Shown in pieces: positions 4,520-32,663 of a stretch of 64,000 nt of DNA. Under the pieces are notes generated by a model, which was not told the origin of the DNA, did not search any database, and worked only from the letters and a program-made list of their open reading frames with translations. Both the position numbers and the translations under genes were made by a program. Location of the stretch: the NCBI RefSeq assembly GCF_003018255.1, contig NZ_CP027440.1. One strand, given 5' to 3'. Source of the stretch: Escherichia coli (GTDB lineage: Bacteria; Pseudomonadota; Gammaproteobacteria; Enterobacterales; Enterobacteriaceae). How positions within the stretch are numbered: the stretch's first letter is position 1; every line of letters starts with the position of its first letter.

Positions 4520-4549
4520 GCCGGATATGGCGTGAACGCCTTATCCGGC
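4520..4549. repeat. REP-like palindromic unit (GCCGGATA...TATCCGGC)
   Basis: Imperfect palindrome with the typical REP motif in the mnmC-yfcL convergent intergenic region. Confidence 0.5.
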
Positions 4550-4556
4550 ACATTAC

Positions 4557-21621: not shown

Positions 21622-21866
21622 CGTTGATTTCCTCTGTATGTGCACCCAAGGTGCCAGATAAACGTTGTGGATATTTTACGCTTCCGGAAAGTGCTGCTCC
21701 AGTTGTTAATTCTGCAAAATCGGATAAGTGACCGAAATCACACTTAAAAATGATCTAAAACAAAATTCACCCGAATCCATGAGTGCGCCACCTCCCAATT
21801 TTGCCAGCTGGATCGCGTTTCTTAGATCATATCTGAAAAAAGATAGAAACATACTTGCAACATTCC

Positions 21867-21883
21867 AGCTGGTCCGACCTATA
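21867..21883. promoter_or_regulatory. FadR operator in fadL promoter (AGCTGGTCCGACCTATA)
   Basis: Strong match to FadR consensus about 110 bp upstream of fadL start. Confidence 0.6.
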
Positions 21884-21891
21884 CTCTCGCC

Positions 21892-21907
21892 ACTGGTCTG
21901 ATTTCTA
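21892..21907. promoter_or_regulatory. Second FadR-like half-degenerate site (ACTGGTCTGATTTCTA) in fadL promoter
   Basis: TGGTCTGA core adjacent to first site. Confidence 0.4.
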
Positions 21908-21992
21908 AGATGTACCTCAGACCCTACACTTCGCGCTCCTGTTACAGCACGTAACATAGTTTGTATAAAAATAAATCATTGAGGTTATGGTC

Positions 21993-23333
21993 ATGAGCCA
22001 GAAAACCCTGTTTACAAAGTCTGCTCTCGCAGTCGCAGTGGCACTTATCTCCACCCAGGCCTGGTCGGCAGGCTTTCAGTTAAACGAATTTTCTTCCTCT
22101 GGCCTGGGCCGGGCTTATTCAGGGGAAGGTGCAATTGCCGATGATGCAGGTAACGTTAGCCGTAACCCCGCATTGATTACCATGTTTGACCGCCCGACAT
22201 TTTCTGCGGGTGCGGTTTATATTGATCCGGATGTAAATATCAGCGGAACGTCTCCGTCTGGTCGTAGCCTGAAAGCCGATAACATCGCGCCTACGGCATG
22301 GGTTCCGAACATGCACTTTGTTGCACCGATTAACGACCAATTTGGTTGGGGGGCTTCAATTACCTCTAACTATGGTCTGGCGACAGAGTTTAACGATACT
22401 TATGCAGGCGGTTCTGTCGGTGGTACCACCGACCTCGAAACCATGAACCTGAACTTAAGCGGTGCATATCGCTTAAATAATGCATGGAGCTTTGGTCTTG
22501 GTTTCAACGCCGTCTACGCTCGCGCGAAAATTGAACGTTTCGCAGGCGATCTGGGGCAACTGGTGGCTGGTCAGATTAGGCAATCTCCTGCTTGGCTGAC
22601 TCCTCAGGGGCAAGCATTAGCAGCTACCGCCAACGGCATCGACAGTAATACCAAAATCGCTCACCTGAACGGTAACCAGTGGGGCTTTGGCTGGAACGCC
22701 GGTATCCTGTATGAACTGGATAAAAACAACCGCTACGCATTGACCTACCGCTCTGAAGTGAAAATTGACTTCAAGGGTAACTACAGCAGCGATCTTAACC
22801 CGGCTTTTAATAACTACGGTTTGCCAATTCCTACCGCGACAGGTGGCGCAACGCAGTCGGGTTATCTGACGCTGAACCTGCCTGAAATGTGGGAAGTGTC
22901 GGGTTATAACCGTGTTGATCCGCAGTGGGCAATTCACTATAGCCTGGCTTACACCAGCTGGAGTCAGTTCCAGCAGCTGAAAGCGACCTCAACGAGTGGC
23001 GACACGCTGTTCCAGAAACATGAAGGCTTTAAAGATGCTTACCGCATCGCGTTGGGAACCACTTATTACTACGATGATAACTGGACCTTCCGTACCGGTA
23101 TCGCCTTTGATGACAGCCCAGTTCCGGCACAGAATCGTTCTATCTCCATTCCGGACCAGGACCGTTTCTGGCTGAGTGCAGGTACGACTTACGCATTTAA
23201 TAAAGATGCTTCAGTCGATGTTGGTGTTTCTTATATGCACGGTCAGAGCGTGAAAATTAACGAAGGCCCATACCAGTTCGAGTCTGAAGGTAAAGCCTGG
23301 CTGTTCGGTACTAACTTTAACTACGCGTTCTGA
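21993..23333 (+). CDS. fadL: Long-chain fatty acid outer membrane transporter FadL
   Basis: ORF 21987-23333; start at [21 protein letters not shown] (signal peptide); C-terminal ...FNYAF. Confidence 0.95.
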
Positions 23334-23343
23334 TAACGCGTTC

Positions 23344-23376
23344 GCTTAATAAGAAAAAAGGTGAGTTTTGCGACTC
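23344..23376. terminator. Bidirectional intrinsic terminator between convergent fadL and mlaA
   Basis: Perfect stem AGGTGAGT/ACTCACCT with 6-nt loop flanked by A-run upstream and T-run downstream. Confidence 0.65.
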
Positions 23377-23394
23377 ACCTTTTTTGTTTGTTTC

Positions 23395-24150
23395 TTATTC
23401 AGAATCGATATCTTTTAAATCATCCTGAATCGCTTGCGCGTTCGGATTTTCCTGCGGTTTGAGTTCGCCGCCATTAGCGATGAAATCATGACGCTGGAAG
23501 TACGCTTCGCGCACCATAATATAAGGATCGGACGACTGACGCAGCAGACCATCGGAATCCAACAACTGCGCACGAGTTTCTATCCCTTCAAGCGTCCATT
23601 TACCCACAGACATCGGCCAGGTCAGCCAGGAAAGAACCGGGTAAAGACCATCCGCCATATCACCACCGTCATCACGCAGCGTGAAGCTACCGTAGAACGG
23701 TAACTGAACGTATGGCCCATAACCCACACCATAATGACCAAGCGTACTACCGAAGCGGTGAGGTTCAGTCCGTTGCAGTTTCGGGTTCGCCATCCCTGCA
23801 ACATCAATAAAGCCGCCCATCCCCAAAATGGTGTTCAGGAAAAAGCGGGTAAAGTGGACCATCCCCTGATAAGGGTCGCCCTGCAAGAAGTAGTTAACCA
23901 TCACCGCAGGTTCTTCAAGGTTGCCAGTAAAGTTGCTCAAACCGTTACGCGCCGGTTGCGGAACATAATCACGCCAGGCGACAGCGACCGGTCGAACAAT
24001 ATACGGGTCTAATACATTGAAATTGAAGTTGTACATGGTGCGGTTGAACCCTTCTAGCGGGTCAGAACGCCCTTGCTGATCTGTACCGGAACTCGCACAC
24101 CCCACCAGAAGCGTAGTTCCCAGAGCAAGCGCCGACAGGCGAAGCTTCAT
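23395..24150 (-). CDS. mlaA: Outer-membrane lipoprotein MlaA (VacJ), phospholipid asymmetry maintenance
   Basis: 251 aa ORF with lipobox (LLVGC), recognised sequence. Confidence 0.93.
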   Translation of the reverse strand: MKLRLSALALGTTLLVGCASSGTDQQGRSDPLEGFNRTMYNFNFNVLDPYIVRPVAVAWRDYVPQPARNGLSNFTGNLEEPAVMVNYFLQGDPYQGMVHFTRFFLNTILGMGGFIDVAGMANPKLQRTEPHRFGSTLGHYGVGYGPYVQLPFYGSFTLRDDGGDMADGLYPVLSWLTWPMSVGKWTLEGIETRAQLLDSDGLLRQSSDPYIMVREAYFQRHDFIANGGELKPQENPNAQAIQDDLKDIDSE

Positions 24151-24443: not shown

Positions 24444-25376
24444 ATGGACAACGACAAAATTGATCAACACAGCGACGAAATTGAAGTTGAGAGCGAAGAA
24501 AAAGAGCGCGGCAAAACAATAGAAATAGATGAAGATCGACTCCCCTCCCGGGCGATGGCAATTCATGAGCATATCCGCCAGGATGGTGAAAAAGAGCTGG
24601 AACGCGACGCAATGGCACTACTGTGGTCAGCCATTGCGGCGGGTCTGTCGATGGGCGCTTCGCTACTGGCAAAAGGGATATTTCATGTCGAACTGGAAGG
24701 CGTGCCGGGCAGCTTCTTGCTGGAGAATCTCGGTTATACCTTTGGTTTTATTATCGTCATTATGGCCCGCCAGCAATTATTTACCGAAAACACCGTGACT
24801 GCGGTACTACCCGTCATGCAAAAACCGACAATGAGCAACGTTGGCTTACTTATGCGGTTATGGGGCGTCGTGCTGCTGGGTAATATTCTCGGGACAGGTA
24901 TTGCGGCGTGGGCATTTGAATATATGCCAATCTTCAATGAAGAAACTCGCGATGCATTTGTCAAAATCGGCATGGATGTGATGAAGAACACCCCCAGCGA
25001 GATGTTTGCCAACGCGATCATTTCCGGCTGGCTGATCGCCACTATGGTTTGGATGTTTCCTGCAGCGGGTGCGGCAAAGATTGTGGTGATTATATTGATG
25101 ACCTGGCTTATTGCCCTGGGTGACACCACTCACATCGTTGTCGGTTCTGTTGAAATCCTCTATCTGGTGTTTAACGGTACGCTGCACTGGAGCGATTTCA
25201 TCTGGCCCTTCGCACTACCTACTTTAGCGGGGAACATCTGCGGCGGCACCTTTATCTTCGCGTTAATGAGTCATGCACAGATCCGTAACGACATGAGCAA
25301 CAAGCGCAAAGCAGAAGCACGCCAAAAAGCAGAACGTGCGGAAAACATTAAGAAAAATGATAAAAACCCGGCATAA
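24444..25376 (+). CDS. yfdC: Formate/nitrite transporter family inner membrane protein YfdC
   Basis: 310 aa ORF, recognised sequence and synteny upstream of argW. Confidence 0.9.
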   Translation: MDNDKIDQHSDEIEVESEEKERGKTIEIDEDRLPSRAMAIHEHIRQDGEKELERDAMALLWSAIAAGLSMGASLLAKGIFHVELEGVPGSFLLENLGYTFGFIIVIMARQQLFTENTVTAVLPVMQKPTMSNVGLLMRLWGVVLLGNILGTGIAAWAFEYMPIFNEETRDAFVKIGMDVMKNTPSEMFANAIISGWLIATMVWMFPAAGAAKIVVIILMTWLIALGDTTHIVVGSVEILYLVFNGTLHWSDFIWPFALPTLAGNICGGTFIFALMSHAQIRNDMSNKRKAEARQKAERAENIKKNDKNPA

Positions 25377-25451
25377 ATGGCGAGGGTTTAAGCAATCGAG
25401 CGGCAGCGTACTTACCCCGCAGTCCATTAGCGGGTATACTCATGCCGCATT

Positions 25452-25526
25452 GTCCTCTTAGTTAAATGGATATAACGAGCCCCTCCTAAGGGCTAATTGC
25501 AGGTTCGATTCCTGCAGGGGACACCA
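25452..25526 (+). tRNA. argW: tRNA-Arg (anticodon CCU)
   Basis: 75-nt sequence GTCCTCTTAGTTAAATGGATATAACGAGCCCCTCCTAAGGGCTAATTGCAGGTTCGATTCCTGCAGGGGACACCA; cloverleaf with CCT anticodon loop, T-loop GGTTCGATTCC. Confidence 0.95.
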
Positions 25527-25735
25527 GATACCCTTCAAACCAAATCTACCTTCACCCCGTAAAAGATGGGTTTGGCAGCACACTTGCCCTATATCTACTC
25601 ATTTTTACTGCAACAGGTTGAAATCTCAGCACTGTCAGAAAGCGCTGATGACTAAACAGCCCTGGGCCGGGCGATGTAACCATCATACAGAATCCTGATA
25701 GCGAAATATGGCGTGACTCGATACTTCACTCTGCA

Positions 25736-25888
25736 ATGCATTCCTTGATGAATTCGCAGGCCCGTGATACACGGGACACGTGGCTGAATGACGACAATGT
25801 CCTGGAAATCAGCGAACCGCGTATCCGGAGTACATTTGAGCGACTGTACCAGAACATGAATGAGGCGTTTGGATTAGGTGATTATTAG
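25736..25888 (+). other. Short unassigned ORF (50 aa) / possible gene remnant adjacent to argW
   Basis: Open frame with internal ATG 25736 ending TAG 25886-25888; frame is open back to 25652 and an out-of-frame ATG at 25648 precedes it, suggesting a degraded or frameshifted gene; below the 60 aa cutoff of the ORF track. Confidence 0.2.
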
Positions 25889-25967
25889 CAGGGGTAAGCA
25901 TTTTTGTATTATTATTTTCCGGTTGAGGGATATGGAGATATCGACAACAACCGGAAAAAGTTTACGT

Positions 25968-27215
25968 CTATATTGCTGAAGGTACAGGCGTTTCCATAAC
26001 TATTTGCTCGCGTTTTTTACTCAGGAAGAAAATGCCAAATAGCAACATCAGGCAGACAATACCCGAAATTGCGAAGAAAACTGTCTGGTAGCCTGCGTGG
26101 TCAAAGAGTATCCCAGTCGGCGTTGAAAGCAGCACAATCCCAAGCGAACTGGCAATTTGAAAACCAATCAGAAAGATCGTCGACGACAGGCGCTTATCAA
26201 AGTTTGCCACGCTGTATTTGAAGACGGATATGACACAAAGTGGAACCTCAATGGCATGTAACAGCTTCACTAATGAAATAATCCAGGGGTTAACGAACAG
26301 CGCGCAGGAAAGGATACGCAACGCCATAATCACAACACCGATAAGTAATGCATTTTTTGGCCCTACCCGATTCACAAAGAAAGGAATAATCGCCATGCAC
26401 AGCGCTTCGAGTACCACCTGGAATGAGTTGAGATAACCATACAGGCGCGTTCCTACATCGTGTGATTCGAATAAACCTGCATAAAAGACAGGAAAGAGTT
26501 GTTGATCAAAAATGTTATAGAAAGACCACGTCCCCACAATAAATATGACAAAAACCCAGAAGTTTCGATCCTTGAAAACTGCGATAAAATCCTCTTTTTT
26601 TACCCCTCCCGCATCCGCCGCTATGCACTGGTGATCCTTATCTTTAAAACGCATGTTGATCATCATAAATACAGCGCCAAATAGCGAGACCAACCAGAAG
26701 TTGATATGGGGACTGATACTAAAAAATATACCAGCAAAGAACGCGCCAATAGCATAGCCAAAAGATCCCCAGGCGCGCGCTGTTCCATATTCGAAATGAA
26801 AATTTCGCGCCATTTTTTCGGTGAAGCTGTCAAGCAAACCGCATCCCGCCAGATACCCCAGGCCAAAAAAGAGCGCCCCCAGAATTAGACCTACAGAAAA
26901 ATTGCTTTGCAGTAACGGTTCATAAACGTAAATCATAAACGGTCCGGTCAAGACCAGAATGAAACTCATACACCAGATGAGCGGTTTCTTCAGACCGAGT
27001 TTATCCTGAACGATGCCGTAGAACATCATAAATAGAATGCTGGTAAACTGGTTGACCGAATAAAGTGTACCTAATTCCGTCCCTGTTAATCCTAGATGTC
27101 CTTTCAGCCAAATAGCGTATAACGACCACCACAGCGACCAGGAAATAAAAAAGAGAAATGAGTAACTGGATGCAAAACGATAGTACGCATTTCTGAATGG
27201 AATATTCAGTGCCAT
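25968..27215 (-). CDS. cscB: Sucrose:H+ symporter (MFS, oligosaccharide/H+ symporter family)
   Basis: 415 aa ORF with 12-TM composition, recognised CscB sequence. Confidence 0.93.
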   Translation of the reverse strand: MALNIPFRNAYYRFASSYSFLFFISWSLWWSLYAIWLKGHLGLTGTELGTLYSVNQFTSILFMMFYGIVQDKLGLKKPLIWCMSFILVLTGPFMIYVYEPLLQSNFSVGLILGALFFGLGYLAGCGLLDSFTEKMARNFHFEYGTARAWGSFGYAIGAFFAGIFFSISPHINFWLVSLFGAVFMMINMRFKDKDHQCIAADAGGVKKEDFIAVFKDRNFWVFVIFIVGTWSFYNIFDQQLFPVFYAGLFESHDVGTRLYGYLNSFQVVLEALCMAIIPFFVNRVGPKNALLIGVVIMALRILSCALFVNPWIISLVKLLHAIEVPLCVISVFKYSVANFDKRLSSTIFLIGFQIASSLGIVLLSTPTGILFDHAGYQTVFFAISGIVCLMLLFGIFFLSKKREQIVMETPVPSAI

Positions 27216-27286
27216 AATTACCTGCCTGTCGTTAAAAAATTCATGTCCTATTTAGAGATAAGAGCGGCCTCGCCGTTTACTTCTCA

Positions 27287-28201
27287 CTATTCCAGTTCTT
27301 GTCGACATGGCAGCGCTGTCATCGCCCCTTTCGCCGTTACTGCAAGCGCTCCGCAACGTTGAGCGAGATCGATAATTCGTCGCATTTCTCTTTCATCTGT
27401 AGATAATCCCGTAGAGGACAGACCTGTGAGTAACCCGGCAACGAACGCATCTCCCGCCCCCGTGCTATCGACACAATTCACAGACATTCCAGCAAAATGG
27501 TGAACTTGTCCTCGATAACAGACCACCACCCCTTCTGCACCTTTAGTCACCAACAGCATGGCGATCTCATACTCTTTTGCCAGGGCGCATATATCCCAAT
27601 CGTTCTGTGTTTTTCCACTGATAAGTCGCCATTCTTCTTCCGAGAGCTTGACGACATCCGCCAGTTGTAGCGCCTGCCGCAAACACAAGCGGAGCAAATG
27701 CTCGTCTTGCCATAGATCTTCACGAATATTGGGATCGAAGCTGACAAAACCTCCGGCATGCCGGATCGCCGTCATCGCAGTAAATGCGCTGGTACGCGAA
27801 GGCTCGGCAGACAACGCAATTGAACAGAGATGTAACCATTCGCCATGTCGCCAGCAGGGCAAGTCTGTCGTCTCTAAAAAAAGATCGGCACTGGGGCGGA
27901 CCATAAACGTAAATGAACGTTCTCCTTGATCGTTCAGATCGACAAGCACCGTGGATGTCCGGTGCCATTCATCTTGCTTCAGATACGTGATATCGACACC
28001 CTCAGTTAGCAGCGTTCTTTGCATTAACGCACCAAAAGGATCATCACCGACCCGACCTATAAACCCACTTGTTCCGCCTAATCTGGCGATTCCCACCGCA
28101 ACGTTAGCTGGCGCGCCGCCAGGACAAGGTAGTAGCCGCCCGTCTGATTCTGGCAAGAGATCTACGACCGCATCCCCTAAAACCCATACTTTGGCTGACA
28201 T
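27287..28201 (-). CDS. cscK: Fructokinase (ROK/pfkB-family sugar kinase of csc regulon)
   Basis: 304 aa ORF with pfkB-family motifs (GG..N, DSTGAGDAF). Confidence 0.93.
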   Translation of the reverse strand: MSAKVWVLGDAVVDLLPESDGRLLPCPGGAPANVAVGIARLGGTSGFIGRVGDDPFGALMQRTLLTEGVDITYLKQDEWHRTSTVLVDLNDQGERSFTFMVRPSADLFLETTDLPCWRHGEWLHLCSIALSAEPSRTSAFTAMTAIRHAGGFVSFDPNIREDLWQDEHLLRLCLRQALQLADVVKLSEEEWRLISGKTQNDWDICALAKEYEIAMLLVTKGAEGVVVCYRGQVHHFAGMSVNCVDSTGAGDAFVAGLLTGLSSTGLSTDEREMRRIIDLAQRCGALAVTAKGAMTALPCRQELE

Positions 28202-28306
28202 TTTTTTCCCTTAAATTCATCTGACTTACGCATAGTGATAAACCTCTTTTTCGCAAAATCGTCATGGATTTACTAAAACATGCATATTCGATCACAAAAC
28301 GTCATA

Positions 28307-28318
28307 GTTAACGTTAAC
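28307..28318. promoter_or_regulatory. Perfect 12-bp palindrome GTTAACGTTAAC, candidate CscR operator (site 1)
   Basis: Read directly in the cscK-cscA divergent intergenic region; identical copy 64 bp downstream. Confidence 0.5.
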
Positions 28319-28370
28319 ATTTGTGATATTCATCGCATTTATGAAAGTAAGGGACTTTATTTTTATAAAA

Positions 28371-28382
28371 GTTAACGTTAAC
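28371..28382. promoter_or_regulatory. Perfect 12-bp palindrome GTTAACGTTAAC, candidate CscR operator (site 2)
   Basis: Identical to site 1, about 35 bp upstream of cscA start. Confidence 0.5.
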
Positions 28383-28416
28383 AATTCACCCAATTTGCTT
28401 AACCAGGATGATAAAA

Positions 28417-29850
28417 ATGACGCAATCTCGATTACATGCGGCGCAAAACGCACTAGCAAAACTTCACGAGCGCCGAGGTAACACTTTCTATCCCCATTTT
28501 CACCTCGCGCCTCCCGCCGGGTGGATGAACGATCCAAACGGCCTAATCTGGTTTAACGATCGTTATCACGCGTTTTATCAACATCACCCGATGAGCGAAC
28601 ACTGGGGGCCAATGCACTGGGGACATGCCACCAGCGACGATATGATCCACTGGCAGCATGAGCCTATTGCGCTAGCGCCAGGAGACGAGAATGACAAAGA
28701 CGGGTGTTTTTCAGGTAGTGCTGTCGATGACAATGGTGTCCTCTCACTTATCTACACCGGACACGTCTGGCTCGATGGTGCAGGTAATGACGATGCAATT
28801 CGCGAAGTACAATGTCTGGCTACCAGTCGGGATGGTATTCATTTCGAGAAACAGGGTGTGATCCTCACTCCACCAGAAGGCATCATGCACTTCCGCGATC
28901 CTAAAGTGTGGCGTGAAGCCGACACATGGTGGATGGTAGTCGGGGCGAAAGATCCAGGCAACACGGGGCAGATCCTGCTTTATCGCGGCAGTTCATTGCG
29001 TGAATGGACTTTCGATCGCGTACTGGCCCACGCTGATGCGGGTGAAAGCTATATGTGGGAATGTCCGGACTTTTTCAGCCTTGGCGATCAGCATTATCTG
29101 ATGTTTTCCCCGCAGGGAATGAATGCCGAGGGATACAGTTACCGAAATCGCTTTCAAAGTGGCGTAATACCCGGAATGTGGTCGCCAGGACGACTTTTTG
29201 CACAATCCGGGCATTTTACTGAACTTGATAGCGGGCATGACTTTTATGCACCACAAAGCTTTTTAGCGAAGGATGGTCGGCGTATTGTTATCGGCTGGAT
29301 GGATATGTGGGAATCGCCAATGCCCTCAAAACGTGAAGGCTGGGCAGGCTGCATGACGCTGGCGCGCGAGCTATCAGAGAGCAATGGCAAACTTCTACAA
29401 CGCCCGGTACACGAAGCTGAGTCGTTACGCCAGCAGCATCAATCTATCTCTCCCCGCACAATCAGCAATAAATATGTTTTGCAGGAAAACGCGCAAGCAG
29501 TTGAGATTCAGCTGCAGTGGGCGTTGAAGAACAGTGATGCCGAACATTACGGATTACAGCTCGGCACTGGAATGCGGCTGTATATTGATAACCAATCTGA
29601 GCGACTTGTTTTGTGGCGGTATTACCCACACGAGAATTTAGATGGCTACCGTAGTATTCCCCTCCCGCAGGGTGACATGCTCGCCCTAAGGATATTTATC
29701 GATACATCATCCGTGGAAGTATTTATTAACGACGGGGAGGCGGTGATGAGTAGCCGAATATATCCGCAGCCAGAAGAACGGGAACTGTCGCTCTATGCCT
29801 CCCACGGAGTGGCTGTGCTGCAACATGGAGCACTCTGGCAACTGGGTTAA
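28417..29850 (+). CDS. cscA: Sucrose-6-phosphate hydrolase / invertase (GH32)
   Basis: ORF 28408-29850; start placed at MTQSRLHAAQN; GH32 N-terminal motif WMNDPNG present. Confidence 0.93.
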   Translation: MTQSRLHAAQNALAKLHERRGNTFYPHFHLAPPAGWMNDPNGLIWFNDRYHAFYQHHPMSEHWGPMHWGHATSDDMIHWQHEPIALAPGDENDKDGCFSGSAVDDNGVLSLIYTGHVWLDGAGNDDAIREVQCLATSRDGIHFEKQGVILTPPEGIMHFRDPKVWREADTWWMVVGAKDPGNTGQILLYRGSSLREWTFDRVLAHADAGESYMWECPDFFSLGDQHYLMFSPQGMNAEGYSYRNRFQSGVIPGMWSPGRLFAQSGHFTELDSGHDFYAPQSFLAKDGRRIVIGWMDMWESPMPSKREGWAGCMTLARELSESNGKLLQRPVHEAESLRQQHQSISPRTISNKYVLQENAQAVEIQLQWALKNSDAEHYGLQLGTGMRLYIDNQSERLVLWRYYPHENLDGYRSIPLPQGDMLALRIFIDTSSVEVFINDGEAVMSSRIYPQPEERELSLYASHGVAVLQHGALWQLG

Positions 29851-29857
29851 CATAATA

Positions 29858-30853
29858 TCAGGTGGAACAACGGATCAACAGCGGGCAAGGGATCCGCGTC
29901 ACTCTTCCCCCTTCACGATCTTCAATAATATGCAATGCAGCTTCCCGCCCGATAATGTCATGTGGAAGCTGAATTGTGGTCAGCGGCGGTAAAAACAGAT
30001 GCCCGACGCCAACCAGATTATCAAAGCCCATTACGGCGACATCCTGCGGGATACGTACCCCCTTCGCCAGGAGAACCTGATAAGCGACAAAGGCTGCGCG
30101 ATCGTTACCACATATCAGAACATCAAAATCTGGTTTGCCCGATTTGAAGTGGTCATTGAGTAAACTTGCGAGATCGGTGTAGTGATCATCACCTGTTGCC
30201 ATGTGAAATTGTTTCACCTCAGCCAGATCTCGTCCAGCATCACGCCAGGCCTGCTCAAATCCCTGCCGACGATACCCTGTTGCCAACGCACTTTCCGGTA
30301 GCCAGAAGCATAACGGTTGACGATAGCCCGCCGCGAGCAAATGCTGTGTTGATTCATATTGTGCAGTGTAATCATCAGGGATATAACTGGGTAACGCTGG
30401 GTCATCCGCCACACAGTTCGCCAATACAATATTTTCACCATACAGAGACTCAGGCAGCGAGATATGTCGCAGCCCCATTGTAGTATAGATAATGCCATCC
30501 GGACGGTGGGCAAGCAGCTGACGTGCCGCGCGGGCAGCGTCATCTTCAGAAAAAATATTGATTAAAAAACTATTCCAGCCAAACTCGCTGGCGGTTTGCT
30601 CAATGGCAAGCAGAATATCAACAGAGAAAGGAGTGGTGGCCGTGTCCTGCGCCAGCACGGCGAGAGTCGACGGCTTACGTCCTTGAGCGCGCATCTTACG
30701 GGCGGAAAGATCAGGAACATAATTCAGGGTCTGGATTGCCTGCAATACGCGGTCACGCGTTGCAGGACGCACAGATTCTGCATTATGCATCACCCGGGAG
30801 ACTGTCATCATCGACACTCCCGCCAGGCGTGCGACATCCTTTAATGAAGCCAT
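29858..30853 (-). CDS. cscR: LacI-family sucrose operon repressor
   Basis: Six-frame ORF is 397 aa; start placed at internal Met giving 331 aa MASLKDVARLAGVSMMTVSRV (LacI-type HTH at the N-terminus). Confidence 0.9.
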   Translation of the reverse strand: MASLKDVARLAGVSMMTVSRVMHNAESVRPATRDRVLQAIQTLNYVPDLSARKMRAQGRKPSTLAVLAQDTATTPFSVDILLAIEQTASEFGWNSFLINIFSEDDAARAARQLLAHRPDGIIYTTMGLRHISLPESLYGENIVLANCVADDPALPSYIPDDYTAQYESTQHLLAAGYRQPLCFWLPESALATGYRRQGFEQAWRDAGRDLAEVKQFHMATGDDHYTDLASLLNDHFKSGKPDFDVLICGNDRAAFVAYQVLLAKGVRIPQDVAVMGFDNLVGVGHLFLPPLTTIQLPHDIIGREAALHIIEDREGGRVTRIPCPLLIRCST

Positions 30854-31083
30854 ACCCAAGCCGTTTGCCGTAAAACGGGCACTGTAGCAGAAACAGACGT
30901 CACTGGCGAGATCCAACGATATTCTCAACGCCCTATCACCCGACACGGCAATACAATAAAAAATAACAATAATTCCCGGACAATTGTACCCAATTCCGCC
31001 TCTGTTCTCGCCAACGAGTAACCATGTAGGCAAGTAGGTAAAACATGCCAACTGGCATCGCCAACCTGGAGAAGAAAATATAA

Positions 31084-31314
31084 ATATGGATCATTGTGCT
31101 GCCGCTGTATCCCGACATCAGTCCGGAAATTATTGCGATTGCTATCGGTTCAGGTGCGATTGGCTGCACGATCGTTACGGACTCGCTTTTCTGGCTGGTG
31201 AAGCAATATTGCGGCGCTACGCTCAATGAAACATTTAAATACTATACGACAGCGACATTTATCGCTTCAGTCGTCGCTCTGGCGGGCACATTCCTGCTGT
31301 CATTTATCATCTAA
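31084..31314 (+). pseudogene. dsdX: 3' remnant of D-serine permease gene dsdX (GntP family), truncated at the csc cassette boundary
   Basis: Open frame of about 76 codons ending 18 bp before dsdA; hydrophobic C-terminal TM segment consistent with DsdX C-terminus; no full-length permease ORF upstream. Confidence 0.75.
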
Positions 31315-31331
31315 GCGCAAAGAGACGTACT

Positions 31332-32663
31332 ATGGAAAACGCTAAAATGAACTCGCTCATCGCCCAGTATCCGTTGGTAAAGGATCTGGTTGCTCTTAAA
31401 GAAACCACCTGGTTTAATCCTGGCACGACCTCATTGGCTGAAGGTTTACCTTATGTTGGCCTGACCGAACAGGATGTTCAGGACGCCCATGCGCGCTTAT
31501 CCCGTTTTGCACCCTATCTGGCAAAAGCATTTCCTGAAACTGCTGCTACTGGGGGGATTATTGAATCAGAACTGGTTGCCATTCCGGCTATGCAAAAACG
31601 GCTGGAAAAGGAATATCAACAACCGATCAGCGGGCAACTGCTACTGAAAAAAGATAGCCATTTGCCCATTTCCGGCTCCATAAAAGCACGCGGCGGGATT
31701 TATGAAGTCCTGGCACATGCAGAAAAACTGGCTCTGGAAGCGGGGTTGCTGACGCTTGAAGATGACTACAGCAAACTGCTTTCTCCGGAGTTTAAACAGT
31801 TCTTTAGTCAATACAGCATTGCTGTGGGCTCAACCGGAAATCTGGGGTTATCAATCGGCATTATGAGCGCCCGCATTGGCTTTAAGGTGACAGTACATAT
31901 GTCTGCTGATGCCCGGGCATGGAAAAAAGCGAAACTGCGCAGCCATGGCGTTACGGTCGTGGAATATGAGCAAGATTATGGTGTTGCAGTCGAGGAAGGA
32001 CGTAAAGCAGCGCAATCTGACCCGAACTGTTTCTTTATTGATGACGAGAATTCCCGCACGTTGTTCCTTGGGTATTCCGTCGCTGGCCAGCGTCTTAAAG
32101 CGCAATTTGCCGAGCAAGGTCGTATTGTCGATGCTGATAACCCTCTGTTTGTCTATCTGCCGTGTGGTGTTGGCGGTGGTCCTGGTGGCGTCGCATTCGG
32201 GCTTAAACTGGCATTTGGCGATCATGTTCACTGCTTTTTTGCCGAACCAACGCACTCCCCTTGTATGCTGTTAGGCGTCCATACAGGATTACACGATCAG
32301 ATTTCTGTTCAGGATATTGGTATCGATAACCTTACCGCAGCGGATGGCCTTGCAGTTGGTCGCGCATCAGGCTTTGTCGGGCGGGCAATGGAGCGTTTAC
32401 TGGATGGCTTCTATACCCTTAGCGATCAAACCATGTATGACATGCTTGGCTGGCTGACGCAGGAAGAAGGTATTCGTCTTGAACCTTCGGCACTGGCGGG
32501 TATGGCCGGACCTCAGCGCGTGTGTGCATCAGTAAGTTACCAACAGATGCACGGTTTCAGCGCAGAACAACTGCATAATGCCACTCATCTGGTGTGGGCG
32601 ACGGGAGGTGGAATGGTGCCGGAAGAAGAGATGGAGCAATATCTGGCAAAAGGCCGTTCATAA
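31332..32663 (+). CDS. dsdA: D-serine ammonia-lyase (D-serine dehydratase)
   Basis: 443 aa [22 protein letters not shown]..., PLP-lysine region SGSIKARGG. Confidence 0.95.

Follow-up and report, generated by a model that had tools for sequence, protein, structure and literature searches.

A frameshifted DUF4942 gene relic of probable island origin lies between argW and cscB in Escherichia coli

Organization of the locus

The window, that is, the whole 64,000-nt stretch of Escherichia coli contig NZ_CP027440.1 that was analysed, is ordinary E. coli chromosome, co-linear with E. coli strain 104 and 98.8–99.4% identical to it across its whole length. The lone break in co-linearity is a small indel at ~4547–4555, where strain 104 has ~72 nt and the window ~7 nt. 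The local gene order is mlaA, yfdC, argW, cscB, cscK, cscA, cscR, a truncated dsdX and dsdA (Table 1), and argW is the only tRNA gene that ARAGORN finds in the window. Upstream of these genes, yfdF represents a second presence/absence polymorphism near argW. It lies between fadL and mlaA in K-12 and in Ec-042-T0, is absent from the lineage of the window (gap at ~21800–23400), is truncated in Z142-2 and is interrupted by IS1 in strain 1223.

The gap between argW and cscB (25527–25967) measures 441 bp and consists of a 66-nt segment adjoining argW, a gene relic in two pieces, and the 3' flank of cscB. The 66-nt segment occurs once per genome, and at this locus only, in 2,630 of 5,426 complete E. 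coli genomes. It has no match in K-12 or in DUF4942 genes, and gave no hit in a DNA-pattern scan of 100,044 species-representative genomes. With a mean pairwise difference of 7.9%, the segment is more variable than any other part of the locus, and it has no significant fold (z −0.9). At a guess, it may be the left end of a lost island.

The cscB flank contains a stable hairpin at 25915–25958, 10 nt past the cscB stop codon, with an 11-bp stem (TTTTCCGGTTG/CAACCGGAAAA) and a 22-nt loop. Its fold z-scores are −4.7 on the minus strand and −3.8 on the plus strand, and among five alleles the stem is nearly invariant (a single change, in F11) while the loop is variable. There is no U-tract. The hairpin may define or stabilize the 3' end of the cscB mRNA. 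Further into the block, the cscK–cscA intergenic region carries two copies of AGTTAACGTTAAC, both palindromes (28304–28322 and 28367–28386), which fit the CscR operators of Jahreis et al. as these are summarized in PMC11251922.

Table 1. Features in and around the argW–cscB gap (positions in the window).
Feature	Position	Strand	Remarks
argW, tRNA-Arg(CCU)	25452–25526	+	ARAGORN; Rfam tRNA, 63 bits
Last base of argW	25526		Exact left edge of the csc-type block; K-12 homology ends there
66-nt segment of unknown origin	25527–25592		Between argW and relic; single-copy
Relic, 5' piece	25593–25680	+	Gene nt 112–199 (aa 38–67); blastn 74% identity, E=1e-13
Out-of-frame ATG	25648–25650	+
G-run	25664–25666	+
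Deletion junction	25670–25680	+	11 nt, GGCGATGTAAC, matching gene nt 189–199 and gene nt 243–254
Relic, 3' piece	25670–25871	+	Gene nt 243–445 (aa 81–149); blastn 74% identity, E=3e-37
50-codon ORF, ATG start	25736–25888	+	RefSeq WP_001317963.1, 'DUF4942 domain-containing protein'
cscB 3' flank	25872–25967		No homology to DUF4942 genes
cscB, sucrose permease	25968–27215	−	415-aa ORF; first gene of the csc block; used as comparator under selection
dsdX', 3' end of dsdX from nt 1121	31097–31314	+	Annotated 'DsdX, incomplete, missing N-terminus'

Boundaries and distribution of the csc block

Relative to K-12, homology runs to the final base of argW and sets in again at nt 1121 of dsdX, and the sequence following argW differs from its first base on. 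This delimits a csc-type block of 5,570 bp (25527–31096). In K-12 its place is taken by the CPS-53 prophage, the pawZ att copy, dsdC and most of dsdX. A remnant of CPS-53/KpLE1 was considered as a source of the gap and is ruled out, since the interval from argW to dsdX has no sequence similarity to K-12. The preliminary description had seen a far boundary near 31050–31090; a boundary does exist, but its true place is 31096/31097, inside dsdX.

Strain-specific DNA thus starts exactly at the 3' end of a tRNA gene, as in tRNA-integrated islands, but the other marks of an intact island, an integrase beside the tRNA gene and a direct repeat at the far end, are missing. The preliminary description had reported both absences, and they hold. 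No integrase occurs in the gap or elsewhere in the window, and none is annotated in the corresponding stretch of strain 104. Searches of the 64 kb with the last 25 or 17 nt of argW gave no second copy, even with up to 3 mismatches allowed, and a repeat search over 25300–31500 found no boundary repeat. The lack of an att repeat at the far end is explained by the nature of the right edge of the block, which is an illegitimate junction in dsdX and not the end of an island.

The block is common in the species. Among the 5,426 complete E. coli genomes, about half have the left 66-nt segment, 2,645 have cscB and 2,658 have the right junction. Where a genome gives two matches to the right junction, the second is a dsdX elsewhere. 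None of the 5,426 has an intermediate or alternative right junction (for example csc followed by attR and dsdC). The breakpoints are identical in all nine alleles that were compared, and the relic is always accompanied by csc. The same junctions and the same breakpoints throughout indicate that this haplotype arose once.

Dissection of the DUF4942 relic

Intact DUF4942 genes of E. coli are 846 nt long and encode 281 aa, with the domain at aa 87–275. When two of them (loci L003 and L004) were used as subjects in a sensitive blastn search, the gap gave two co-linear matches on the plus strand (Table 1). In a global alignment these are separated by a single 55-nt gap (gene nt 200–254), at which the two blastn matches overlap. 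The deletion is flanked by 11-nt direct repeats, and it has shifted the reading frame. By tblastn the 3' piece has 47% amino acid identity, and a further match lies in a second frame that holds two stops; the ancestral frame of the 5' piece is closed by TAA codons at 25653–25655 and 25677–25679. The limits of the 3' piece (query 144–345) recur against ~1,780 genomes that hold only the paralogues. Missing from the relic are gene nt 1–111, 200–254 and 446–846, and homology ends at 25871. Judged from these alignments, the surviving part is the middle third of a DUF4942 gene, truncated at both ends and frameshifted. With its truncations, frameshift and premature stops relative to intact homologues, it has the features of a pseudogene. 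The preliminary description had suspected a frameshift, which the 55-nt deletion and the two upstream TAA stops bear out, and had taken the region for a gene remnant; the remnant is real, although it begins earlier than was claimed, at ~25593, and in a different frame.

At the protein level, the 78-aa open frame matches Pfam DUF4942 (PF13708) with 35.4 bits (E=1.1e-8), above the gathering cut-off of 25 bits, while the 50-aa ORF alone reaches 23.3 bits and falls below it. The match spans only profile positions 5–62 of 190, so that ~30% of the domain is left, compared with positions 1–189 in an intact paralogue; a complete domain within a protein of ~281 aa is not present. A chance ORF is ruled out by the homology statistics, both this Pfam E-value and the DNA matches (E=3e-37 and 1e-13). 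The tblastn check that had been proposed for the region therefore finds DUF4942 homologues, rather than frames devoid of homologues and conservation.

No close intact relative of the relic has been found. In a word-indexed search of 5.8 billion proteins, the sole hits were further short alleles of the relic (44–131 aa), and an exhaustive HMMER search of 1.84 billion representatives returned full-length matches that are only ~50% identical. A pattern scan for relic peptides in the 100,044 species-representative genomes found nothing. At this level of identity, the full-length proteins do not identify a donor island. The intact DUF4942 protein itself has no match in NCBIfam, PADLOC or the PDB sequences. 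In PHROGs, the intact 281-aa protein (L003 8759–9601) matches phrog_6263, 'DNA methyltransferase', at positions 92–287 of 548 (E=6e-18), and DUF4942 may be a domain that is also found fused to phage methyltransferases.

Open reading frames over the relic

All coordinates given in the preliminary description for the 50-codon ORF, its open frame and the upstream ATG proved correct. The frame of the ORF is open back to 25652, directly after a TGA at 25649–25651. Its ATG is not preceded by a Shine-Dalgarno sequence, and its final five codons and stop fall in sequence unrelated to DUF4942 genes. The ATG at 25648 runs for only 16 codons (translation MTKQPWAGRCNHHTES*) and belongs to neither ancestral frame. 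In allele P0001 (79 aa, MTKQPWPGDV..., MTKQPWPGDVTIIQ...), the equivalent ATG is in frame with the ORF; going by the two protein sequences, P0001 apparently has one G fewer in the G-run.

ORFs recorded over the relic in databases are 44, 50, 54, 60, 73, 79 or 85 aa long, and among strains overall the ORF ranges from 19 to 85 codons or is interrupted. Many genomes have no CDS called over the relic at all, and others carry a PGAP CDS. The 60-aa RefSeq alleles P0005 and P0012 (L002 20202–20384) start with M where the window and O157 have ATA (E-I-W/R-R-D), and their annotated start appears to be a non-canonical codon picked from homology evidence. The 50-codon ORF is an accidental open stretch, the length of which depends on the strain.

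Sequence divergence and selection

As expected of a dead gene, the relic lacks the codon-position pattern of a sequence under purifying selection. Compared with an intact gene, the relic has mismatches in similar proportion at the 1st, 2nd and 3rd codon positions (25/97, 22/96 and 27/97), while two intact paralogues differ over the same segment mostly at the 3rd position (1/112, 4/111 and 19/111). The same is seen among nine alleles of the locus (the window and loci L001, L002 and L008–L013), where the variable sites at the three positions number 10/14/8 in the relic versus 18/4/63 in cscB. In-frame stops interrupt the relic in three of the nine alleles (L008, L011 and L013, from F11, Ec-042-T0 and strain 20.1). 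A functional DUF4942 member would be expected to show purifying selection, and the flat spectrum of the relic does not; a neutral substitution pattern together with an ORF that is unstable between strains is what a pseudogene displays.

The rate of change points the same way. Relative to the window, the relic diverges by 3.3% in O157 (cscB dS 0.033), by 6.7% in MS15236 (cscA dS 0.075) and by 8.5% in F11 (cscB dS 0.166). For the csc genes dN is 0.002–0.012, and for cscB dS is 0.03–0.17. Mean pairwise difference is 3.5–7.9% for the relic and the 66-nt segment, versus 1.9% for cscB. The relic drifts neutrally, and its divergence is close to the dS of the csc genes, not to their dN.

Two further observations concern the genes around it. 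In Ec-042-T0 (L011 7029–8276), cscB is interrupted by an internal stop and carries a pseudogene annotation, and the relic of that strain likewise has an in-frame stop. Between the window and MS15236 (L009), dsdA (31332–32663) shows a dS of 0.25, compared with 0.03–0.07 for the csc genes and 0.08 for yfdC in the same pair, which suggests that a divergent dsdA allele was brought in by recombination at the argW hotspot.

Elements integrated at argW in other strains

A search for repeats of the argW 3' end in related genomes, as had been proposed, was productive in lysogens, which have a 15–23-nt copy directly left of the base equivalent to 25527. Such copies accompany the IntS-prophage remnant of O157, TorI-bearing lambdoid/P22-like prophages in F11 and JNE21-009, and a composite element in strain 20.1. 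This position of the repeat places both relic and csc outside the present-day mobile elements, as a fixed right flank of the attachment site.

The composite element of strain 20.1 (NZ_AP027170.1; L013 1–6500 and L014 35376–42443) includes a CP4-type module in argW, situated behind a P22-like prophage, IS elements and an hsdR-like gene. The module carries genes for a GTPase, Ag43/Cah, DUF932, an antirestriction protein, RadC/JAB, DUF987 and a YeeU-family antitoxin, and a 19-nt repeat of the argW 3' end follows ~80 nt after it. Genes for a toxin, DUF5983, DUF957 and DUF4942 are all lacking, which makes this a composite argW element with antitoxin but no toxin. This arrangement means that a CP4-type module can occupy argW. 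In O157 strain 180-PT54 (L002 10032–12790), integrases lie on both sides of argW, that of a lambdoid prophage just upstream and the intS of a degraded P22-like element just downstream, and the attR copy has a 1-nt deletion (TGCA-GGGACACCA).

Four deposited 'complete phage genomes', vB_EcoP-611R6 among them, extend past excisionase and attR into the relic, cscB, cscK and cscA (ON470589.1, at L015 5712–10323, ON470594, ON470608 and ON470622). The host csc genes in these records stem either from a prophage boundary that was set wrongly or from aberrant excision. The label 'A-kinase anchor protein 5' is given there to an ORF that overlaps the relic on the opposite strand.

Origin of the relic

Intact DUF4942 paralogues close islands of the CP4 (cryptic P4-like) type, in which genes for a GTPase, Ag43/Cah, DUF932, an antirestriction protein, RadC/JAB, DUF987 and a CbeA-family antitoxin are followed by the toxin end, i.e. 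a CbtA-family toxin, DUF5983, DUF957 and, last, DUF4942. None of the other genes of this module is present in the window, neither those for the GTPase, Ag43, DUF932, KlcA, RadC and DUF987 nor those for CbeA, CbtA, DUF5983 and DUF957. The relic points away from argW, which is the orientation expected at the far end of an island with its integrase beside the tRNA gene. Very probably, then, the argW–cscB gap holds a non-functional relic of a DUF4942 gene of the kind that forms the last gene of CP4-type tRNA-integrated islands. The proposal of the preliminary description, that a gene of an earlier island or prophage had decayed to a remnant, is supported in this form, the homology being to the middle third of the terminal gene of such islands.

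The most straightforward history would begin with an old island in argW. Deletions would have removed everything from ~66 nt past argW to codon 37 of the DUF4942 gene, and a second event would have joined the middle of that gene to the 3' flank of cscB. The attR of the island, dsdC and the first 1,120 nt of dsdX would also have been lost, and losses of this kind would account for the absence of an integrase and of an att repeat. From then on, in csc-positive E. coli, the block 25527–31096 would have flanked the argW attachment site on the right as a fixed sequence, with later prophages and islands inserting between argW and the relic. The csc genes may have come before, with or after the island; no intermediate is found among the 5,426 genomes. 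Tentatively, csc may have arrived only once, in or beside an already dead CP4-type island in argW, and the relic would then be a datable scar of csc fixation. If so, the three junctions (argW end/66-nt segment, mid-DUF4942/cscB flank and cscR/dsdX nt 1121) would form one haplotype shared by every csc-positive E. coli; it would predate the splitting of the csc alleles and could come from another species.

A related possibility, which we regard as less likely than not, is that the gene did not die in argW of E. coli but that the relic arrived already dead, in an imported block together with cscBKAR from another species, and that recombination in argW set the left boundary. The linkage of relic and csc is almost perfect, and the left edge coincides precisely with the end of a conserved tRNA. 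In addition, no csc dS within E. coli (maximum 0.17) is as large as the ~24% mismatch to intact genes at the first two codon positions, suggesting that decay started before the csc alleles diverged, although some of the 24% may have accumulated long ago between paralogues that were still functional. Against an import stands the lack of a donor, relic peptides and 66-nt segment alike being absent from the species-representative genomes. An imported block would alter the place where the gene died, not the identity of the feature.

It is very unlikely that the sequence has been kept as a non-coding element, be it a terminator of argW, the end of the cscB transcript or an arm of a phage attachment site. 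There is a stable hairpin with a conserved stem just past the cscB stop, and phages and islands do integrate directly left of the 66-nt segment. However, the hairpin, which is the sole conserved structure, lies outside the relic and has no U-tract, no part of the locus varies more than the relic and the 66-nt segment, the only Rfam match is the tRNA, and promoter or terminator signals do not rise above chance. Moreover, K-12-type strains have a wholly different sequence after argW and still host the same IntS-type prophages, so that the flank is not needed for integration.

Least probable of all is a functional small protein, a domesticated DUF4942 fragment under selection as the RefSeq CDS annotation implies: PGAP calls a CDS in many genomes, the relic is kept in ~2,630 of them and the open frame scores above the Pfam threshold, but the variable sites lack a third-position excess, divergence is near the synonymous divergence of the neighboring genes, three of nine alleles have premature stops, starts and lengths vary (19–85 aa), some genomes have no CDS call, the domain is reduced to 30%, a Shine-Dalgarno sequence is lacking, the 50-aa ORF scores under 25 bits, and retention is accounted for by tight linkage to csc.

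Significance and comparison with known systems

The argW hotspot, the replacement of dsdC and part of dsdX by csc, and the family name of the ORF in annotation were already known. Added here, from comparison of sequences, is the reading of the annotated CDS as a pseudogene, along with its precise dissection. The relic is an ordinary evolutionary scar common to about half of E. coli, and its importance beyond bookkeeping is little. The RefSeq annotation is inconsistent, the ORF being called at 44 to 85 aa or not at all, and should mark it as a pseudogene. At present the csc block is no mobile element but a fixed flank, probably left after an older island was deleted to a stub. Its three invariant junctions provide a clean marker of a single csc origin in E. 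coli. They also mark the ends of argW-integrated prophages, which is relevant since four phage records overrun into csc.

The closest systems are the CP4-44/CP4-57-type islands, with L0010 in the LEE-adjacent element of O157 and orf56 in the SRL PAI of Shigella. The SRL PAI has the same gene order, with orf56/L0010 as its DUF4942 gene (PMC6980539). Over aa 38–149, the relic is 74% identical to these genes in DNA and 47–50% in amino acid sequence. In contrast to them, it is a frameshifted one third of a gene, evolves neutrally, and is not accompanied by CbtA, DUF5983, DUF957 or an integrase.

The recombination hotspot at argW–dsdCXA/csc has been established (Jahreis et al. 2002; Moritz and Welch 2006; as cited in PMC4366372 and PMC11251922), and the window has the same architecture, with cscBKAR in place of dsdC and the 5' part of dsdX beside argW. 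The accounts of the hotspot in PMC4366372 and PMC11251922 that cite these studies, as far as they were available to us, make no mention of a DUF4942 relic. A further parallel is pawZ of K-12, a 15-nt pseudo-copy of argW that constitutes the attR of CPS-53/KpLE1. The relic is a gene fragment and not an att copy, no repeat of that kind occurs in the window, and CPS-53 and the relic have no sequence in common; yet both pawZ and the relic are scars of mobile elements that target argW.
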